Source: TPA_inf: Saccharomyces (Eukaryota). From it: a DNA stretch of 64,000 nt. The notes under the pieces were generated by a model. The model made no database searches, was not told where the DNA came from, and saw only the letters and a program-made list of their open reading frames with translations. Below, piece after piece: positions 2,417 to 42,867 of the stretch. The DNA is taken from positions 256,001 to 320,000 of the forward strand of contig BK006946.2 in assembly GCA_000146045.2 (NCBI GenBank), in the 5' to 3' direction. The stretch's first letter is position 1. Every line of letters starts with the position of its first letter. The translations under genes were made by a program, and so were the position numbers.

Positions 2417-3157
2417 TATATTTAAGTAACAGAGTGCTTTTTGATGGTTTTTGTTAACCGTCTTTCGAGCAGTTGAAGGATGAGAGTGAGTGTTAATGAG
2501 GGGTTATTTCTGCAAAACTTCTGCCGATATATTCTGCACTTAGTTCCCGCTGTTGTTCAGCCTTCACGTTCCTTAGCTACACAAGTCAGTTAAATCTGGT
2601 CCTGCCAAAGTGAATAAGTTGAAGATATTTATCTAGCTTGCGATGGAAAAAACTACAATAGGAAAAAAACTAATTAAAAAAAGAAAAAAAAAGAGAAGAA
2701 TTCAATGTTTAGGGATATAAATTCGATATAAAGGTTTAAAGTAAATAAATTTCGTGTATTACTATGCAAGTAATGTTTCTGCCTGCACCGGCTTCGTAGC
2801 TGGTGGAGTGCGATAGCGATGATACTACCTGAAAACACAGAGGAAGGCCGTCAGCCCCGCGCTAGGAACGATGAGGAGAAACCAGTTGGCGAATCGCCAC
2901 ATGCCATTTACGTAAAAGATGCTGTGTAACCTAACAGAAATAATCGATGGTGTGAACTAAAGTCCTAGGATGCACATAAGCAAGCGAAAAAGTGAAAACA
3001 ACATTTCCAGAGCTAAAAAAATGCATTTGCCGATCCGAAATAATCTCAAAACGAAAAAATGATTATGGACGTAAACAAAATTACCGCATTTCGCTCTCCT
3101 ATTATCATAACAAGCATGAGCGCAAAACTTAAAAATCCATCAAGAGGCAAAAAATAA

Positions 3158-3239
3158 CGACAACTGCAGGACTCGAACCTGCGCGGGCAAAGCCCAAAAG
3201 ATTTCTAATCTTTCGCCTTAACCACTCGGCCAAGTTGCC
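3158..3239 (-). tRNA. tS(AGA)M: tRNA-Ser (anticodon AGA), 82 nt with long variable arm
   Basis: The reverse complement reads GGCAACTTGGCCGAGTGGTTAAGGCGAAAGATTAGAAATCTTTTGGGCTTTGCCCGCGCAGGTTCGAGTCCTGCAGTTGTCG. It has a 7-bp acceptor stem (one G-U pair), GTTCGAGTC T-arm, anticodon loop TTAGAAA and a long extra arm typical of type II Ser tRNA. Confidence 0.95.
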
Positions 3240-4220
3240 ATACTAACTTGATTATTTGTGTATTCTGTTTTCTTGTGATTCCTTCTGGTTACATAATTAC
3301 ATTGTCTATATTCATATTTGATTCTAACAGCAGGTAATATTGGTCTATCGGCTACTCGTTCAAAAAATTAAAATCGTTATCAATTATATTCCATAGTATA
3401 GGTTGTTAAAAGATGGAATTAATTAAAGTAGAGTAGTAGAACAGGGATCACAGTGTTATTAGATTTTGGAGCAACTGATGTGTGTGAGTAATATATAAGG
3501 ATGAATCGAATGAAAGTATTATGAGAAAAGGAATCATCGTTGTGTAAAGTTGTTCATTTCGTATTTCTGGGTACTGTGAATGAGATGAACTTGCTGATAA
3601 TCGTTGGCATACTATTATTTGGAACGGTAATATTTTTGCGAATACAAAGTATACTGTAGTTTTTCCCCGAGGATTTACGAACCCACGAGAAGTGATCAAT
3701 ATTTCTACACAGTAGCATTATGATCTCTCTTTATTCGCTTATGTGTCGCCATTCACTACCCTATCATAATTCGGATCCTTGTGTTTCAGCTCCCATTAAG
3801 TTTGACGACCGTTCGTCATTTATTTATATTCTTACACCGTACACGATAATATACTTATGCGAACTCTAGTCGGTCGATGGTGATTAATTTTCATTTCAAT
3901 ATTTACTTATATCGGCGATAAGTCTTAAGCATGGAATTTATAGTCATTCTGTCACCCCTCCGAAACAGAAATGAATTTGTAAATGTATTCACTAAGTTTA
4001 GCCGTTTTAGACATTTGAATGTCGTTCGTCATCAGCGCGGCCAATATTGTTTACATGAAGAAAATGTTGTTAATATAGGCACTCTATTTGGTTTCATTAT
4101 GAGAAGTATCTTGCTGCTTGATGTCTTCGCACTTTTTTTTTCCAGATTTTTCAGGTGATGAGGTGGAGCTGGAGGATTTTACAATATTACTCAAATAATT
4201 TGTAGACAACGTTAGCGTGA

Positions 4221-7476: not shown

Positions 7477-10400
7477 TTGACAATGTCAGTTTACCATTTA
7501 CCAACGCTGTTGAACCCGCTGGTTAATGCTATATTTAACTGTCCCGAACCAGAAAGATCCCCATTGAAAAAGCTTTTCGCTAATTTAAAAACCCGTAGGT
7601 TTATCCTCCTAGCACCTCCTTCAGAATACCTTTTGAATTACCACGATGTCAAGAGCAAACTGCCGTTACATGACCTCTGTTATAATGCAGAGTTTATTAA
7701 CTCTTACATATTGTTAATGACTGAAAACTCTTACATAAATACGAATTCAAGGGACAGTCATTATGAAACGTTAGATGGTAAGACCGTTGTTATTCAATGG
7801 AAGAATAATGTGATCCATGCCTTAAATGGATTTCATATAAGGCGAAGACTAAAGATTCTAGAGACAAAAATATTACCCAATTTTAATGACTACTTTGAAG
7901 GGGCGGCTGATTTTATCATACTATTCATAGATCAACCTTTAAATTGCGAATTTGTACCTAACGACTACTTACAGTGTTTTCACAATTATGAGAAAATACC
8001 AAAAAATGCACATGCTATGCCAAATCTGTCGATAGATTCTTTTCAGCAAGAAAGATCGTCATTCGAGAATATATTGCACATTCATCCTGCTCGATTAACA
8101 CAGCTTGGCCAATTGTTTTCGAGTTACAGAACGCTCGCTCCTGGTGATGATCCATCTAGAAGTATTTTTGAAAGCATCGTGCAACAAGCATTTGATGGAA
8201 TGAAATCGGATTCACTTTTCAAGAACTTTTCTAATCTTTACGATCTTATACACGACTATTTTGAACTAAATCTTTACGATGATATATGGTCTAGGCTTAC
8301 TACACATTTCAAAGGCCACGAAGTAGACACTGAAAAAATAAATATTTTTCAGTGAACCAGTTGTTGACAGATTTTTACTCAAAAGATTATGGGGAATTTA
8401 AATTACACGACATCACTCTTATTGAAAGGCGTCTCCATCTAGCGTCCAAACATCTTCAAAAGTTGGCTTTGACCCATTCATACGCTGAAAAATCTAAAAT
8501 ATTAGTTGAAACTCTACAGAAATTATCAGGTACTACCGAAATGGATTCACATCAACTAGAACTACCAGACGGATTGAATAACATGACGATGGATGCAGAC
8601 ACTTTAATTAGCCTTTTTGTGCTCGTTGTTTGCAGAAGTGAACAAAAGCACCTTAAAAGTCATCTTTACTATTTGCAAAATTTTTCGAATAACTCTTCTT
8701 CTACAAAATTCGGCATTCTAGGGTATGCTGTATCCACACTGGAAGCAGTGGTTTGTTATTTCGAAGACTTCAACAAAAATACAGGCAACGTGGCGAAAGC
8801 TAACACATTATGTGAAAAAACTAAGAATTTATTAGATAAGTTGTCATGTGAAAACCCCACAAATGAAGTAGAAGATCTGGCAACATACAAGGATATTTTG
8901 ACCTACAGAAATGAGCAAGGACAATCCATTCTATCCATATGTATAACAAATCATAAAAACTACATCTTATTAGATATTCTTTCTGAATATGAAAACGACT
9001 TTCCAGTAGAAGACCTTTTAGAGGACGAAACGATTGATGGTTCTACGCTGCTTATAGAATCGATAAAAGCAGGAAATTTAGAAGCCGCGAAAGTTCTCAT
9101 AAAGATCATGCTGTTCAATTGTACTGAAGAGGAGCTGGTTTCTTATATCAATAAAACAGATAAATATGCACGTACCGTGGCTCATTATCTAACCCATGAA
9201 ATGGATATACTTAAAAGCATCGGAAATTATATTGATTGGAAACGAAAAAATTCCAGTGGACAAACGCCTTTATTTTCCATCTTTAGAAGTTATGATCAAC
9301 CAAATTATGAAGAAATGGTGAAGACCGCATTTGATATCGCAAATACTTGGTATAGAAAGCACAACAGTTTGTTTGACTATCTAGACCACACCGATAATAA
9401 GGGCAATAGCTTGTTGCATGTTTTGAAAACAAACATTCCAATCCTTTTACAACTGACTAAGCTAGATATTAATGAGGAAAATTATAAGGGATTGACGCCA
9501 TTAATGGTATATGTGAAGTACAAAAGACTAAGTAATATTGACGCCATCACGAAAGACCGTCGACTTATATTAGAGAAGGTTCAAAACTCGACCTTCTTCA
9601 CTTGTTTTGATTATGCAAAAGATCACTCGGTACTAAGCAAGATAGGAGAAAGGGGTGTCAAAGATTCACTTTTTGGATTAATATATTTTCATTCTTTGCG
9701 ATATCATAATTTAAATGCGACAACAAATATAACATCCGTTTCAAATGCAGAGAAACCTTTCGCCACTACTGTTATTAACATGAAAACAATTCAAGGCTTA
9801 CTACGCTCAATTCTGAAAGACAATCCGTTCACCTTTTTGCCATTAAATACCTATATCGATGAAATATCGCACTTAAACCGTTCTGATTTAACAATAATCG
9901 GGAAAACAGATGTCACATCGTTACTTCACCAATTAACTAACTGCTTCAACGTTCTTTTATTCCTGAAAAAAATTCCAGAAAATTTGTTCACTGATGAGGC
10001 TTCTATCTTATATTGGATGCGCATAAACACTTCTAAAAGAAACCAGAAACCCTCAGGAAAAGAAAATCCAAAAACAATGGAACCCGAGGAGATTAATATG
10101 ATACAAAGCTTTTTACGTTTTAATTTTGATGAGATTTCATCATTTAAGGCAAGCTTGAATATTTTGAGGAAAGTCTTAATATTTATTAATTTGAAATCCG
10201 ATGATTTCGAGGATGCTTATAAGGGTCTTAACGAAATGGGTAGAAAATTAATTAATAGTGAAGCATCCAGCGCATTTAAGGGGATTATAACAAATCATAA
10301 TATGTTCAGTGAATTATCGCTAGCAGCACTACTAGAAAACGTGCGTTTCTTGGAACAATGTACTATCCAACTATCTAGTTTCGTTCAGATAATTTTATTT

Positions 10401-10754
10401 GAAAAAATTCCGAACTGGTGGAAACATTATGGTGAGTTTTTAGCTTTACATAAAAGCTATCGGAAGGCTTTTCCTAACATGGTTAAGCCAAAAAGTGCAT
10501 CAGATACCTCTAGTCGTGCTCCACTTGGTGGTTTTATTGAAACGAAGCGTGAACAATCGGAGCAAAGACTAGCGGTTCAGATAAAGGCCTCTTCAAAAAT
10601 GCTCAAAGAACTTGGAAGCGAAATTTTTGTAGCTCACGAAAGGTTGGCCGAGGAACTAAGCAATTATATGGAGTTCAGGAAGGCGTGCTTAGATCAGCGT
10701 AGTCTTGTGGCATTTGCCACAACCAACATTAGCGTTCTTCAAGAATGTGTTTAA
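7477..10754 (+). pseudogene. VRL1: VRL1 (YML003W + YML002W); VARP-like Vps9-domain GEF disrupted by a frameshift near 8334-8353
   Basis: Two same-strand ORFs abut: frame 1 at 7477..8355 and frame 0 open from 8334 to 10754, with the first ATG at 8541. They overlap by about 20 nt within a run of A6/T5 homopolymers. The downstream ORF encodes ankyrin-like repeats and a Vps9-like region. I recall that in S288C these are annotated as YML003W and YML002W and that together they form the frameshifted VRL1 gene. Confidence 0.7.
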
Positions 10755-11173: not shown

Positions 11174-11800
11174 ATGTCTTCTAGAAAAAAAAATATTTTG
11201 AAAGTAATCATCCTAGGTGACTCTGGTGTTGGGAAGACCTCCTTGATGCACCGTTATGTCAATGATAAGTATTCTCAACAGTATAAAGCAACAATTGGGG
11301 CTGACTTTTTAACAAAAGAGGTGACAGTTGACGGTGATAAAGTTGCCACCATGCAAGTTTGGGATACTGCTGGACAGGAACGTTTCCAATCACTGGGTGT
11401 TGCTTTCTATAGAGGTGCAGATTGTTGCGTTTTGGTCTACGATGTGACCAATGCCAGTTCCTTTGAGAATATTAAGTCTTGGCGAGATGAATTTCTAGTG
11501 CATGCGAACGTAAACTCACCAGAAACATTTCCATTTGTTATACTGGGAAATAAAATTGATGCCGAAGAATCTAAAAAAATTGTATCAGAAAAGTCCGCTC
11601 AGGAGCTTGCTAAATCATTAGGCGATATTCCTTTGTTTTTAACAAGTGCCAAAAACGCCATAAACGTTGATACCGCATTTGAAGAAATTGCAAGGAGTGC
11701 TTTACAACAGAATCAAGCTGATACAGAAGCCTTTGAAGATGACTATAATGATGCCATCAATATTCGCCTAGATGGAGAAAATAATTCTTGTAGCTGTTGA
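11174..11800 (+). CDS. YPT7: YPT7; Rab7-family GTPase, 208 aa
   Basis: It has the P-loop GDSGVGKTS, switch II WDTAGQE, NKID and SAK motifs, and a C-terminal CSC prenylation motif. The track ORF begins one codon earlier at a GTG; the true ATG is at 11174. Confidence 0.93.
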
Positions 11801-12030
11801 GCTGTACTACTTAATTGTATCTTCTATTATGTAATCCTTTATAGCGTATCCTTAAAAAAATTAATAATTTAAAACTACTAAATATATTTAGGGATGTGAT
11901 GGCCCTTTCAATATGAGGCTTTCGATTACCATGTGCAATCTGTCTATGAACCTTAGTTAATTAACACAACTGTTAAATAAAGCGATTTACTACACTTGAG
12001 ATAATATAACTCAACAAAACGTGACAAAAA

Positions 12031-12150
12031 ATCACATGACTACCTAACAAAATATTTATTTTTCTTTTTTAATATTTGAAAATACTAAAATATTTTTGTT
12101 GTTTTTTGAAAAAAGGATTTTTAATGTGTATGCGTTCCGAACTTTAAATA
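12031..12150. other. CEN13: CEN13 point centromere (CDEI-CDEII-CDEIII)
   Basis: CDEI is ATCACATG at 12031-12038. CDEII is an 86-bp tract of about 86% A+T at 12039-12124. CDEIII is TGTGTATGCGTTCCGAACTTTAAATA at 12125-12150, with the invariant CCG at 12137-12139 and the TTCCGAA core. The position between the YPT7 and CDC5 3' ends matches CEN13. Confidence 0.92.
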
Positions 12151-13018
12151 TAACGTCAGCGTAAAAATAATTTTTCTCCGAATGTATATCGAAATCTCAA
12201 ATTGCTCTTAGAGATTTAGATTTCAACGACAGGATAAATTGGCTAGAGTTGAAAAAACTGCACAGAGTATATAAAAGATCTTGCAATGGATGATTAAAAT
12301 TTACGGTATTTCATTTTTCCAATGAATGGCTTTTCTAAGAGAAATTAATTTCGCAATTTGTTGATGAGAAGTTCTGGCTACCTTAGTCACTATTTATTTT
12401 ACTATGGCGGTATAAGTTTCTCCCGCCTTGAAAAAAGGAATACAGTAATAAAATGAATATAAATCAGGATTTTTTGGATTTTAACTAGGTAACAAAGAAT
12501 TAGCAAATAACTGCCCATAATAGTATTCTTAAGTTTGTAGATACATGTCAAGTAAGCCAGCTTTTGATAAAACTTAAAAATTGGTAAACCGCGGATGTAC
12601 CAAGTGAATAGCTTTCAAAATTAATGTTGTCACTCTTCCAATGGGCACCTGTAAGAATAATTAAAAAGAAATCTAGGTTCAAAACAATATTTTTGAGAAA
12701 ATCTCAGGAAGCGACAGGTTATCATCCCATACATACAATATGAATACAAAAGCATGGCAATTTTGAATAGATATAGCTCTAGAACCGCTCAGGCGAAAAA
12801 AAACGCTATATGAGAACTATTGAAAAGGAAGAACTAACATGAAAGATGTTTGTTCATTTCGTACCTTTAGAAAAAGGGTATTAATGCTAGGGGTAAATAT
12901 TATATATTATCTTCGTTAAGGGCAAGACCATTTATTTTATTTAGTATTAGTTATTAATGGGGCCCAATCAATGGACTGGTAATTTCGTATTCGTATTTCT
13001 TTCTACTTTAATATTGGT

Positions 13019-15136
13019 TTAATCTACGGTAACAATTGTGGACTTCTGCTTCAAACCTTCCTTTATCAAAGTTAGTTTCTCTCTAAAGTTACTTTCTGGA
13101 TATCCTGGGATCTCGCCATATTTTAGTACTTCAACTAAGGGATATGTGGTGCTTTCATGGGAGGGAGAAATGTAGGTCACCAATTTACCTCCGTCGGATA
13201 TTGCCATTTTATGATGATCTTTGAAATTGAACTGGAAAGTACCATCACTTAGTTCAAACATAACAAATGGTTTATACCTTGTGTATCTTCTCAAAAATAC
13301 ATCATCTTTATGATATTCTTCTCTGCCAAACGTAGATACTCGGCTCAAATTTGCCTTCATGTACTTGGCAAAAAAATCAACTACTTCTAAATGTCTACTT
13401 AGCTCTCGTGGTTTTTCGCTCAATAAATAATGACTTGCTACCCAACCTTCCCGATCGTCATAACTAATATACCAAAACTCTTCTGCATCTGCCAATCGGA
13501 GAACTGTGGTGCCATTATTAAATAAGACACCAATATCCTCTGTTGATAACTGATAGGAGAATCCGTGTTTGTTGGAGTAGTCGACCCACTTGGTAACTAT
13601 CATTGGGTGTTTAATTTTAGGCAATCTTGATTTCGGAAGACCTCCCATTTTATACTGAGCTTCTGCTTCTACAATGCCATTCAAAGTAAGATGACACTCA
13701 CTGGCTAATATTCTCAAGGAGATTTCTGATTTAATGACATTGGTCGATGTAGCTATTAATTCTTTTCTCAAAACGGCCTGTTGTGCTCTACGTATCCTTG
13801 CTTCACGAGCCAAATCGTTTAATCTTCTTTGTGCCTCTATATCAACAACCTCCTTATATTTCTGTTTCGTCCCGCCAGGGGATAAAGAATGTGGTAAAAA
13901 TGGTCTGTTTTGGTGGTACTCTTCTAGTTTATCGATACTAGATTTAATTGAAGAAATATAATCCCTCTTTTGACGCTGAATTTTATCGCTGCTCATGCTT
14001 TCTAATAGTAGAGATTTTTCCATGCAATCTTTGAAGTTAACCAGTGACTGCTCTTCAGGAATATCCTCAAAATTTGGTGCTTCTGACATGACCGTCGAAG
14101 GAATAGATGGTGGGAAAGTTCCCCTAAACCATACATAATCCATAATTTCAGTCAAAGAGGGCCTTTCTATTGGATCTAAGGATAGAATGTCTCTTATTAA
14201 AATCTTACCTTCATCTGAGATTGGTTTATCTCTTGGAAACGAAAAATCACGACATTTGATTCTTTCATAAATAGTGTTTACATCTCTTGCTTGGAAGGGT
14301 GGCTTACCAATCAACAAAGCATAAAGCATAACACCTAATGACCAAATATCTACTTCAAATGAATGTCCAGAATGCTTACCCATCAACACTTCAGGTGCGA
14401 TGTAATTAGGTGTTCCGCATATGGTGTATTTACGTTCACTTTCATTCGCCAACACAGCTGCCAGACCGAAGTCACCAATCTTTAAGTTATAGTTTGAATC
14501 GAAGAAGATGTTACCAAGTTTTAAATCTCTATGTATAACTCTTCTTGAATGCATATACTTAATTGCACCACATATTTGAGTGGTGAAAAATCTAACTTCT
14601 GGTTCTGTTAAAACTTTTCTTCTTTTTAGTAATTCCATTAATGAACCGTTGGGGCATATCTCCAATAAGATATAGACATTGCTATCATCCTCAAAACAAT
14701 CAATAAACTGAACGATATTTGGATGGGACATACTTTTATGAATTTGAATCTCCGACAACAACTTTTTTCTTGTCTTCTCTGATTTAATTGAGGCTTTAGC
14801 AACTGTTTTGGCAGCAAAAATTTCGCCTGAATCGTCCTTAATTTGGAAACAGCGAGCAAATCCACCTTCACCTAAAAAATGACCTCGGTGATAGTCTTTT
14901 CCTCTTGTTTTGATTAATGAAGGTGGTGTTTTACACAAAGCTGATAACTTTTCCCTTTTCTTTTTTTGAGCTGGCTGGTGGTGATGATCATTATTCGGAT
15001 CTAGTCTCTTTGTTTGTTTAAAGTGATTTTCTTTTCCTACGAGGTCTGCGGTATTTCCCTTTATTGGGGTGTGAACTAACTTGGAACGGGTATTCAATTG
15101 CTTATCATTGATAGCTTTAAGAGGACCCAACGACAT
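13019..15136 (-). CDS. CDC5: CDC5; polo-like Ser/Thr kinase, 705 aa
   Basis: Kinase motifs HRDLKLGN, DFGLA and GTPNYIAPE are present, along with C-terminal polo-box regions. It is a full-length ORF. Confidence 0.93.
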   Translation of the reverse strand: MSLGPLKAINDKQLNTRSKLVHTPIKGNTADLVGKENHFKQTKRLDPNNDHHHQPAQKKKREKLSALCKTPPSLIKTRGKDYHRGHFLGEGGFARCFQIKDDSGEIFAAKTVAKASIKSEKTRKKLLSEIQIHKSMSHPNIVQFIDCFEDDSNVYILLEICPNGSLMELLKRRKVLTEPEVRFFTTQICGAIKYMHSRRVIHRDLKLGNIFFDSNYNLKIGDFGLAAVLANESERKYTICGTPNYIAPEVLMGKHSGHSFEVDIWSLGVMLYALLIGKPPFQARDVNTIYERIKCRDFSFPRDKPISDEGKILIRDILSLDPIERPSLTEIMDYVWFRGTFPPSIPSTVMSEAPNFEDIPEEQSLVNFKDCMEKSLLLESMSSDKIQRQKRDYISSIKSSIDKLEEYHQNRPFLPHSLSPGGTKQKYKEVVDIEAQRRLNDLAREARIRRAQQAVLRKELIATSTNVIKSEISLRILASECHLTLNGIVEAEAQYKMGGLPKSRLPKIKHPMIVTKWVDYSNKHGFSYQLSTEDIGVLFNNGTTVLRLADAEEFWYISYDDREGWVASHYLLSEKPRELSRHLEVVDFFAKYMKANLSRVSTFGREEYHKDDVFLRRYTRYKPFVMFELSDGTFQFNFKDHHKMAISDGGKLVTYISPSHESTTYPLVEVLKYGEIPGYPESNFREKLTLIKEGLKQKSTIVTVD

Positions 15137-29099: not shown

Positions 29100-30317
29100 A
29101 TGTCAACAACAGGTCCGTTAGATGCTACTTTAATAAGGGACGTTGCGGTTGCTACTGCCACCAAAGCATCATACGATATGAGCGATACTCTATATTCATA
29201 TCTACCCAAGGTCGACCAATTTTATATTCCTGAATGGCTTACAATGCAATTCATTGCCAACAATTTGATCAGCTTTACCCCCCTATTTTCATATGGTACC
29301 ACGATCATTAGCATTGAGAAATGCAAGACTGCTTTAGGGTTTTCAATAGATATTTGTGCCACAATGTTGATCGCTAGTATCCTAAGAATATCTTACTATC
29401 TCATTACACCGTATGAAATCACTTTGTTGAGGCAGTCATTAGTGATGATTTTTATTCAACTGATCTTGCTGAGAACAAGCTTAAAATATAGACCTGATGA
29501 GTACAAATACCAAAATCTCACCGATGTAGAGTCATTGTCACATTTGATTCACGACATATGGTTCGAGTTTTTTAGCTGCATTAATAGACCGAAATTTTTA
29601 AGTGAAGATTGGAAGAATCTGATCAAATCTCTTTCGTTCACAAATTTACTGAAATTTTCATTCAAAATTTTTTTGGCATTTTTTTATAAAATTTTGAAAT
29701 TCTTTGACCCAAATTTCAAAAGAATTGGAGCGTTTTGGCAGTGGGATGACGACAAAAATTTCTGGAGGTTTTTAGCTCTTTTTGCAACTGTACAAATATT
29801 GGTCACATTTTTCATCTCTAATATTTTAAATTGGGACTCACTAGCTCAAGGACTGGGCTCTATCATAGGGTCGTTGGGTTTATTGGTGGAGTCGCTTTTG
29901 CCGTTACCACAAATCGCCATTCTTTATAAATTGAAGTCTGTTCAAGGTTTCAAATTGATCCTTTTGGTAAGCTGGCTTTGTGGTGATACACTGAAAATCA
30001 CTTACCTGATATTTGGTGCGAAAAATATTTCTGCTTTGTTTGTTATTTTTGCATTATTTCAAATGTCATTAGACTTTTACATCGGTGGTCAATACATTTA
30101 CTACAGATACTATTATCCAAAGTTAAGGCATCAACATCACCCTAATGACAGTAATTCGCCATCAGATGAAGATGAAAGCGAAATGTACGAATTAGATCTT
30201 TTTAATACCTTACAAAAGGATGTCGAAAAGGCCTTGAAACAGGATAGTAATGATACGTCAGATTCACCTCAAGATGACCAAGTGGGTAAATCTCAGGCAC
30301 AGGCGGTAACGCTATAG
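29100..30317 (+). CDS. ANY1: ANY1 (YMR010W); PQ-loop polytopic membrane protein, 405 aa
   Basis: Multiple predicted transmembrane segments with PQ-loop-like motifs (LPQIAILYK). Position between ADI1 and HXT2. Confidence 0.78.
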   Translation: MSTTGPLDATLIRDVAVATATKASYDMSDTLYSYLPKVDQFYIPEWLTMQFIANNLISFTPLFSYGTTIISIEKCKTALGFSIDICATMLIASILRISYYLITPYEITLLRQSLVMIFIQLILLRTSLKYRPDEYKYQNLTDVESLSHLIHDIWFEFFSCINRPKFLSEDWKNLIKSLSFTNLLKFSFKIFLAFFYKILKFFDPNFKRIGAFWQWDDDKNFWRFLALFATVQILVTFFISNILNWDSLAQGLGSIIGSLGLLVESLLPLPQIAILYKLKSVQGFKLILLVSWLCGDTLKITYLIFGAKNISALFVIFALFQMSLDFYIGGQYIYYRYYYPKLRHQHHPNDSNSPSDEDESEMYELDLFNTLQKDVEKALKQDSNDTSDSPQDDQVGKSQAQAVTL

Positions 30318-34800: not shown

Positions 34801-34872
34801 TCCGATATAGTGTAACGGCTATCACATCACGCTTTCACCGTGGAGACCGGGGTTCGACTCCCCGTAGCGGAG
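34801..34872 (+). tRNA. tE(UUC)M: tRNA-Glu (anticodon UUC), 72 nt; carries an A5-G68 acceptor-stem mismatch
   Basis: Sequence TCCGATATAGTGTAACGGCTATCACATCACGCTTTCACCGTGGAGACCGGGGTTCGACTCCCCGTAGCGGAG, with anticodon loop CTTTCAC and T-arm GGTTCGACTCC. It lies 262 bp upstream of CLU1. Confidence 0.92.
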
Positions 34873-41276: not shown

Positions 41277-41361
41277 TTCCCTTGATGACCAAAATAAATT
41301 TTTACAAACTAGAGTTTCTGAATCTTTTGTGATTAGAACGTTTATTCTTATTTCTGAGGTT
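41277..41361 (+). ncRNA. SNR78: box C/D snoRNA, first of cluster (snR78)
   Basis: C box TGATGA at 41283-41288 and D box CTGA at 41354-41357. Internal D'-like (tttCTGAatc) and C'-like (tGTGATtag) boxes are present. It is flanked by the inverted repeat gctaatta ... taattagc (terminal stem). Length about 85 nt. Confidence 0.6.
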
Positions 41362-41502
41362 TTTAATTAGCAATAAAGAAGAAAAAACTGAAAGGAAAAG
41401 TCTAAATAGAAATACAGTAGTATTTCTTCAATTTCTCTGCTCTCCTTTCATTTACCACACCCATTTCAATTTTCTTTTTATTCCATATTTATTCAAAGGT
41501 GT

Positions 41503-41594
41503 TTGTTCATATGATGATTATAACAAAAACAAAAGCTGGAATTACTGGCTGAACGAGTATATGTTGATACGTTTTTGCACTATCCTGACCTAGC
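41503..41594 (+). ncRNA. SNR77: box C/D snoRNA snR77 (guide for 18S rRNA Um578)
   Basis: C box ATGATGA at 41511-41517 and D box CTGA at 41586-41589. Flanking inverted repeat ggtgtttg ... caaacacc. The 11-nt guide GCTGGAATTAC (41535-41545) upstream of the D' box CTGA (41549-41552) is complementary to the conserved 18S segment GUAAUUCCAGC. The fifth nucleotide upstream of D' pairs with the U of GGUAAUU. Confidence 0.8.
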
Positions 41595-41721
41595 AAACAC
41601 CTTTAAAATAAATACTAGAAAGTTGACACATTTCCATAAATTGGAAGAATACATTTAAGCTTAGAAAACAGTAGTTTTTTAGTGCTATTCTTCCGTAGAT
41701 TGATGTTTTCGATCTATTTGA

Positions 41722-41834
41722 TACAATGGAAATGAGGATCCACAGCACTGGGCACTGAGGGGGAAACAAATATCCTTTCAAATGAGTGACAATGCTTTAG
41801 CGGGCCTAGAAAACCCGCGCAACTGATCCATTGT
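41722..41834 (+). ncRNA. SNR76: box C/D snoRNA, third of cluster (snR76); non-canonical C box
   Basis: A 7-bp terminal stem (caatgga at 41724-41730 pairing with tccattg after the D box). C-like box AATGAGGA at 41731-41738, D' CTGA at 41755-41758, C' ATGAGTGA at about 41782-41789, and D box CTGA at 41824-41827. Length about 110 nt. Confidence 0.5.
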
Positions 41835-41914
41835 AAGTTTTTCTGAGGGCTAACAGAATTTTCTATAGGGAAGAATGGATTTTTTTCTCATTTTCGTATA
41901 ATTATGTGAATTGG

Positions 41915-42003
41915 TTTTTATGATGAGATATTTATAGATGACGAGTCTGATCATTCGTGAAGACACAACTATTAAAATTACCATTCATGCCTTTCTGAAG
42001 CTG
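41915..42003 (+). ncRNA. SNR75: box C/D snoRNA, fourth of cluster (snR75)
   Basis: C box ATGATGA at 41921-41927, D' CTGA at 41948-41951, C'-like GTGAAGA, and D box CTGA at 41996-41999. Length about 88 nt. Confidence 0.65.
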
Positions 42004-42067
42004 TTTACATTATTCTTTTCGATTAGCAAAGAATTTGGAAATAGAAAAAAATCGACAGATAACTAGT

Positions 42068-42188
42068 TCATCAGTTGATGTGTCTGTATTGCTTCCATGT
42101 TTTTTAAAGAAAATTTCTACCTTAGAGACGTCAATGCTGCAGAAGATGAAACAAATTACTCAAATAGACAAGCATATGTCTGATCTTC
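42068..42188 (+). ncRNA. SNR74: box C/D snoRNA snR74 (guide for 18S rRNA Am28)
   Basis: D box CTGA at 42180-42183, immediately preceded by the guide AGACAAGCATATG, which is complementary to the 18S 5' region CAUAUGCUUGUCU. The fifth nucleotide upstream of the D box pairs with A28. A C-like box TTGATGTG lies at 42075-42082. The exact 5' end is uncertain. Confidence 0.75.
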
Positions 42189-42305
42189 ATGATTGAAAAG
42201 AGCAATTAGTGTCTGATGCAATTTAAACTAGAAAATTTATCTGAGAGAGATGAGAGATCGTACAAACTGTTTCAAGGTTTTTAACTTTTCTCCAATTTCA
42301 AAAAT

Positions 42306-42411
42306 TGTTTATGATGATTTCCACATTTCACGACGGTCAACTGCGTTTTTCGAATGTTTATCGATTAACTTTGATGATATTTCGCCTGTGACAGGGCGTG
42401 GTACTGAGCTT
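42306..42411 (+). ncRNA. SNR73: box C/D snoRNA, sixth of cluster (snR73)
   Basis: C box ATGATGA at 42311-42317, C' TTGATGA at about 42371-42377, and D box CTGA at 42404-42407. Length about 106 nt. Confidence 0.7.
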
Positions 42412-42548
42412 TAATATTTTTAGCAAATTTAGAAATTGGGTCAAGCGAACCATTGTAATGCTGACTATTTGGACGACTCTAATCTCTTCAATATATTTGA
42501 GTTCAAATATATTAACTTGAGTAAATTTTCTCTTGCGTTAATTATAAC

Positions 42549-42647
42549 TAATTGTGATGTGATGACAACTTCTTGAGCTATATATTTTCTTGAGAACATC
42601 AATGAAGAAAACGTCTCATCAAATGATTTGCACGTCAGTCTGATCAC
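42549..42647 (+). ncRNA. SNR72: box C/D snoRNA, seventh of cluster (snR72)
   Basis: C box GTGATGTGATGA at 42554-42565 and D box CTGA at 42640-42643. Length about 98 nt. Confidence 0.7.
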
Positions 42648-42867
42648 AAGCCATATAAAATTCTTTAAGTATTTTATCCATTCTACCTTTTTCATCTGTT
42701 AGTGATCGATTAAAGCAACACCCAGACATTACATGGCCCATATGGCAAAAATTTTCATCTCATCTACCTCATCACTGTGTGCATTTAGTGTATGAATGAC
42801 TACTTTAAGCAATTTAACCAGTATATACGTATAAAGAGGTCAAGTGTACGGATAACCCAAAGGAAAC

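Follow-up and report, generated by a model that had tools for sequence, protein, structure and literature searches.

Sequence architecture and comparative analysis of the element between YPT7 and CDC5, predicted to be CEN13 of Saccharomyces cerevisiae

The stretch of 64,000 nucleotides analysed here (hereafter the window) carries a short A+T-rich element at positions 12031-12150, and the question raised by this locus is whether the element is the working centromere of a chromosome or a piece of DNA that resembles one. On the strength of its sequence, the element is almost certainly CEN13, the point centromere of S. cerevisiae chromosome XIII. The characterisation of yeast point centromeres dates back to 1980, and each of the 16 has been annotated. 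CEN13 is already known, it was correctly recognised in a preliminary description of this DNA, and there is nothing new about it; because it has long been characterised and annotated, it opens no new question. Its value is rather that of an anchor, which places the window in the region around the chromosome XIII centromere, explains the change from L to R in the gene names, and marks the predicted site of a single Cse4 nucleosome and of the kinetochore.

Architecture of the element and chance expectation

The three parts of a point centromere adjoin one another on the forward strand (Table 1), as the preliminary description had proposed. Indeed (i) CDEI was recovered with the octamer that had been reported, (ii) the 86 bp and approximately 86% A+T claimed for CDEII were reproduced by base counts (86.05%), and (iii) CDEIII contains the CCG that had been named as essential. 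The CCG is therefore present and not lost, and CDEII has the length (78-86 bp) and the A+T content (>85%) on which that description had made its reading depend. In addition, GTTC and GAAC arms beside the CDEIII core form a short dyad in the sequence.

Table 1. Coordinates of the features discussed in the text (positions in the window)
Feature	Position	Strand	Description	Basis
tRNA-Ser(AGA)	3157-3240	-	pericentromeric tRNA gene	
VPS9-domain ORF	7483-10754		split by a 1-bp deletion near 8337	comparison with three S. cerevisiae strains
YPT7 (Rab7 GTPase)	11174-11800	+	left neighbour; stop 230 bp before CDEI	exact match to YPT7_YEAST
YPT7-CDC5 gap	11801-13018		1218 bp, gene-free	
CDEI (ATCACATG)	12031-12038	+	8 bp, fits RTCACRTG	sequence reading
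CDEII	12039-12124	+	86-bp spacer; A32 T42 C6 G6; 74/86 = 86.0% A+T	base counts
CDEIII (TGTGTATGCGTTCCGAACTTTAAATA)	12125-12150	+	26 bp, adjoins CDEII directly	sequence reading
CDEIII core TTCCGAA	12135-12141	+	CCG 12137-12139 = CDEIII positions 13-15; central C 12138	
CDC5 (polo kinase)	13019-15136	-	right neighbour; stop 868 bp after CDEIII	exact S288C-named match
A/T-run-rich stretch	29651-29736		second-highest A/T-run fraction of the window (0.44); ~81% A+T	
tRNA-Glu(UUC)	34801-34872	+	pericentromeric tRNA gene	
C/D-box snoRNA cluster	41278-42650	+	order snR78, snR77, snR76, snR75, snR73, Z122	Rfam

Point centromeres have been described as composed of a CDEI of the form RTCACRTG, a CDEII of 78-87 bp with 76-98% A+T and a (T/A)(T/A)CCGAA core, the latter being kept in all 16 S. 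cerevisiae centromeres, within a total of 111-120 bp (PMC10810202), and the element at 12031-12150 agrees with this description in CDEI, CDEII, core and total size. Replacement of the second C in CCGAA by any other base inactivates the centromere (PMC10810202); the equivalent base here is C12138. The total length is 120 bp, or 119 bp if a 25-bp CDEIII is adopted. Because the length of CDEIII differs between papers (23, 25 or 28 bp; PMC10810202, PMC3155921, PMC13079627), the last A, at 12150, is a matter of convention, the 25-bp version ending at 12149.

Compared with CEN3 and the general consensus (RTCACRTG, 78-87 bp of A+T-rich DNA, TGTTTWTGNTTTCCGAAANNNAAAAA), the element has an exact CDEI and a CDEII that fits in length, A+T content and run fraction, although 86% A+T stands at the low end of the usual range. 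The 26-nt CDEIII consensus used here is said to be the string given by Hegemann and Fleig in 1993. An alignment to the centromere consensus, which had been suggested as a check, was carried out for CDEIII and gave matches at 18 of the 22 specified positions, with TTCCGAA at its canonical offset and the four mismatches (T4G, T10G, A18C and A25T) all outside the essential core. The word textbook, which had been applied to this centromere, needs softening for CDEIII in view of these four non-core departures. They also explain why a scan of the 64-kb window allowing at most three mismatches returned no match: CDEIII was recovered when up to six were allowed. It is the sole site with four or fewer mismatches in the 64 kb, against 0.07 expected per window in random sequence with the same dinucleotide transitions. 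A full-text literature search with the CDEIII string (GCGTTCCGAACTTTAAAT) returned no match.

The simplest alternative is that a Cbf1 E-box and a CCGAA sequence happen to flank ordinary A+T-rich intergenic DNA. The single motifs lend themselves to such a reading, since CDEI-type octamers are common and uninformative when taken alone (four RTCACRTG matches in the window, 5.25 expected), TTCCGAA occurs 10 times in the window, and yeast intergenic DNA is A+T-rich. However, the correctly spaced composite TCACRTG-N(88-97)-WWCCGAA is found once, where 0.04 are expected per window before any A+T requirement is made, and no other 86-bp stretch of the 64 kb is as rich in A+T or in A/T runs as its spacer. 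Moreover, all the species examined have this arrangement at the syntenic position, even though the surrounding DNA cannot be aligned. Because of these statistics and of this retention across species, chance co-occurrence is excluded, its probability being practically nil.

The composition of CDEII is also that of a centromeric spacer. Only 0.0125% of the 86-bp windows reach its A+T content, and the fraction of its bases in A/T runs of at least 4 is 0.523 (nine runs, the longest of 6), compared with 0.18 +/- 0.08 in shuffled versions of CDEII itself, none of which (0/5000) reached the observed value. A run fraction >0.38 separates better from worse synthetic centromeres (PMC10476280, citing Baker & Rogers 2005), the wild-type CEN template has a run fraction of 0.53, no native CDEII has a run longer than 8, and homopolymer-run content correlates with stable Cse4 recruitment (PMC10476280). 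With 0.523 and a longest run of 6, CDEII of the window lies above this threshold and below this limit.

Genomic context and chromosome assignment

The convergent 3' ends of YPT7 and CDC5, between which the preliminary description had placed the centromere, were borne out by the two ORFs given in Table 1. In Pfam, the left ORF falls in the Ras/Rab family and the right one is a kinase with polo boxes, and an exact-sequence look-up returned 'Ypt/Rab-type GTPase YPT7 ... YPT7_YEAST', 'polo kinase CDC5 [Saccharomyces cerevisiae S288C]' and, for the next gene, MIX17, 'Mix17p [Saccharomyces cerevisiae S288C]'. Loci elsewhere that encode the same Ypt7 are located on chromosomes of ~0.9 Mb, with the gene at ~245-258 kb.

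YPT7 and CDC5 correspond to YML001W and YMR001C, which by systematic naming are the first ORF on either side of the centromere of chromosome XIII, and the two names were found in use for those ends of its arms that are proximal to the centromere. The centromere must therefore lie between these two genes. The anchoring of the window to chromosome XIII is accordingly supported, and it rests on gene identity (the exact Ypt7, Cdc5 and Mix17 matches) together with the naming convention. The database coordinates of CEN13 are presumably chrXIII 268031-268149, from which the window would correspond to chrXIII 256001-320000 and the element would end at 12149 instead of 12150; a literature search for the coordinate 268031 gave only unrelated papers. 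In comparison with the annotated CEN13 of S. cerevisiae, the order, lengths, composition and CCG core, the YPT7 and CDC5 neighbours and the size of 119-120 bp agree, and no difference was found.

A centromere-like region, or an inactive relic, could in principle lie at this place, carrying centromeric sequence features while the kinetochore assembles elsewhere on the chromosome. Near CEN13, centromere-like regions whose A+T-rich stretches resemble CDEII do exist (PMC3547844), and the likeness consists of a short A+T-rich stretch of ~90 bp that is able to attract Cse4 and is often near a centromere (Lefrancois et al. 2013). In such regions, however, neither CDEI nor CDEIII can be recognised, and kinetochore proteins are bound only under Cse4 overproduction; at 12031-12150, in contrast, both motifs are present, intact and invariant within the species. 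Furthermore, no second composite match was found in the 64 kb, and the systematic names of its two neighbouring genes put the boundary of the left and right arms precisely where the element lies. This alternative is consequently considered very improbable.

It was also considered whether the region is an A+T-rich replication origin (ARS), or a terminator shared by two convergent genes, both of which would suit an A+T-rich region between two 3' ends. Against an origin, 11801-13018 contains no 11/11 match to WTTTAYRTTTW, and the two 10/11 matches, at 12454 and 12569, are outside the element; a terminator would leave unexplained why CDEI and CDEIII are invariant and stay 84-87 bp apart across species. 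These readings are still less probable than that of a relic, and the point centromere is retained as the interpretation of the element.

Variation within S. cerevisiae and across the genus

The YPT7-CDC5 gap of the window was aligned with that of 10 other S. cerevisiae assemblies (L001-L010). Among these 11 sequences, no event was found in the 34 bp of CDEI and CDEIII, whereas the 86 bp of CDEII show 17 events (substitutions or indels) and vary in length by several bp, and the flanks within the gap show 32 events in 1098 bp. CDEII is thus approximately seven times more polymorphic than its surroundings (17/86 vs 32/1098; Fisher P = 9e-9), and CDEI and CDEIII together are less variable than CDEII (Fisher P = 0.003). 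In every strain examined, the A+T content of CDEII is nevertheless 85-89%.

For the comparison between species, loci were used that encode Ypt7 variants from other members of Saccharomyces; they cover at least six species, which were assigned from named proteins and from the identity of the Cdc5 C-terminus: S. kudriavzevii (L011, L014, L019), S. eubayanus (L012, L018), S. uvarum (L015-L017), a locus close to S. uvarum (L020), S. mikatae (L021), S. arboricola (L022) and a further Saccharomyces (L013). The three-part element is present in every species examined, on the same strand and 217-249 bp past the YPT7 stop. CDEI is ATCACATG in all the other species except S. arboricola, in which it is ATCACATA (L022, 3377-3384), so that identity to the window is 100% with this one exception. 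Identity is 62-89% for CDEIII and 55-63% for CDEII, the latter being no better than that of the flanks, which are effectively unalignable. All CDEIII orthologues carry TCCGAA, those of S. eubayanus and L020 having TCTCCGAA, with a C directly before CCG (L012/L018/L020, ~3460-3480), a position occupied by T or A in all S. cerevisiae centromeres. CDEII orthologues measure 84-87 bp with 81-96% A+T, and their sequence is not conserved. The conservation profile of the gap has local peaks at CDEI and CDEIII amid poorly conserved DNA. The element shares its place, strand and architecture with the orthologous CEN13 in S. mikatae, S. kudriavzevii, S. arboricola, S. eubayanus and S. uvarum, but CDEII cannot be aligned.

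Such a pattern makes sense only if the constraint on CDEI and CDEIII is one of sequence, and that on CDEII one of length and composition. It matches the conserved CDEI and CDEIII and the fast-evolving CDEII reported for yeast centromere evolution (PMC3155921) and, as far as sequence can indicate, corresponds to the signature published for working point centromeres.

The A/T-run fraction of CDEII is 0.19-0.40 in the other species, vs 0.52 in S. cerevisiae, with 19-29% of bases in runs in S. kudriavzevii, S. arboricola, S. eubayanus and S. uvarum. These values could mean that the S. cerevisiae rule of >~38% A/T runs for a working CDEII does not hold throughout the genus, although this is unlikely. 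If true, the failure of the rule across the genus would imply lineage-specific ways in which CDEII supports the Cse4 nucleosome.

The protein occupancy and the segregation function of 12031-12150 are those that we infer from its sequence and from the roles of Cbf1, CBF3 and the Cse4 nucleosome at point centromeres as given in the literature (PMC13079627). In brief, a Cbf1 homodimer would bind the E-box-like CDEI, and the CBF3 complex (Ndc10, Cep3, Ctf13 and Skp1) would bind CDEIII, the zinc-cluster domain of Cep3 reading the CCG. Ndc10, via the chaperone Scm3, would then load one Cse4 (CENP-A) nucleosome onto CDEII with its many A/T runs; at point centromeres, Ndc10 and Scm3 deposit Cse4-H4 on CDEII, and Mif2 contacts CDEII (PMC13079627). 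A single kinetochore would be built on the CDEII nucleosome and attached to one microtubule.

Remainder of the gap and other features of the window

The preliminary description had held that the centromere accounts for a gene-free stretch of about 1.2 kb. The length of this stretch is correct (1218 bp), but the explanation is too strong: the centromere fills 120 of the 1218 bp (~10%), and it does not account for the gap alone because the gap also holds the conserved 3' flanks of both genes. Directly past the YPT7 stop, 11801-11860 is moderately conserved across species. On the CDC5 side, 12811-12990 shows a conservation of 0.7-0.94 per 20 bp in eight Saccharomyces species, equal to that of the neighbouring coding DNA, with invariant strings that include GGTATTAATGCT, TTATATATTAT and GCCCAATCAATGGAC. 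A small conserved ORF was considered in this segment and rejected; it is taken to be non-coding because it contains 1-nt indels and no conserved ATG. Consensus RNA folding of both strands gave only one invariant 5-bp hairpin, and no covariation was detected in the consensus structure of either strand. The segment probably corresponds to the 3' UTR of CDC5 or to signals for its 3' end, and it might, beyond the 3' UTR, represent a functional element of the pericentromere. An Rfam scan of the whole window had no match in 11801-13018, the matches elsewhere being a snoRNA cluster and two tRNAs (Table 1).

The second-highest A/T-run fraction of the window is found 17.6 kb from CEN13 (Table 1). Under Cse4 overexpression, a centromere-like region has been reported 15 kb from CEN13 (Lefrancois et al. 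2013; PMC3547844), and a link between the two is speculative.

To the left of YPT7, the VPS9-domain ORF has a called length of 1090 aa in most strains and also in the other species, whereas the window has a 290-aa ORF and a separate downstream ORF. The frameshift site reads GAAAAAATAAAT in the window and GAAAAATATAAAT in the three S. cerevisiae strains compared (L023-L025). This is presumably the known YML003W/YML002W split of S288C. Finally, within the snoRNA cluster, the 300-bp gap at 42001-42306, where a seventh snoRNA would be expected, had no Rfam match at gathering score. The position of this snR72-78 cluster also fits this region of the chromosome.
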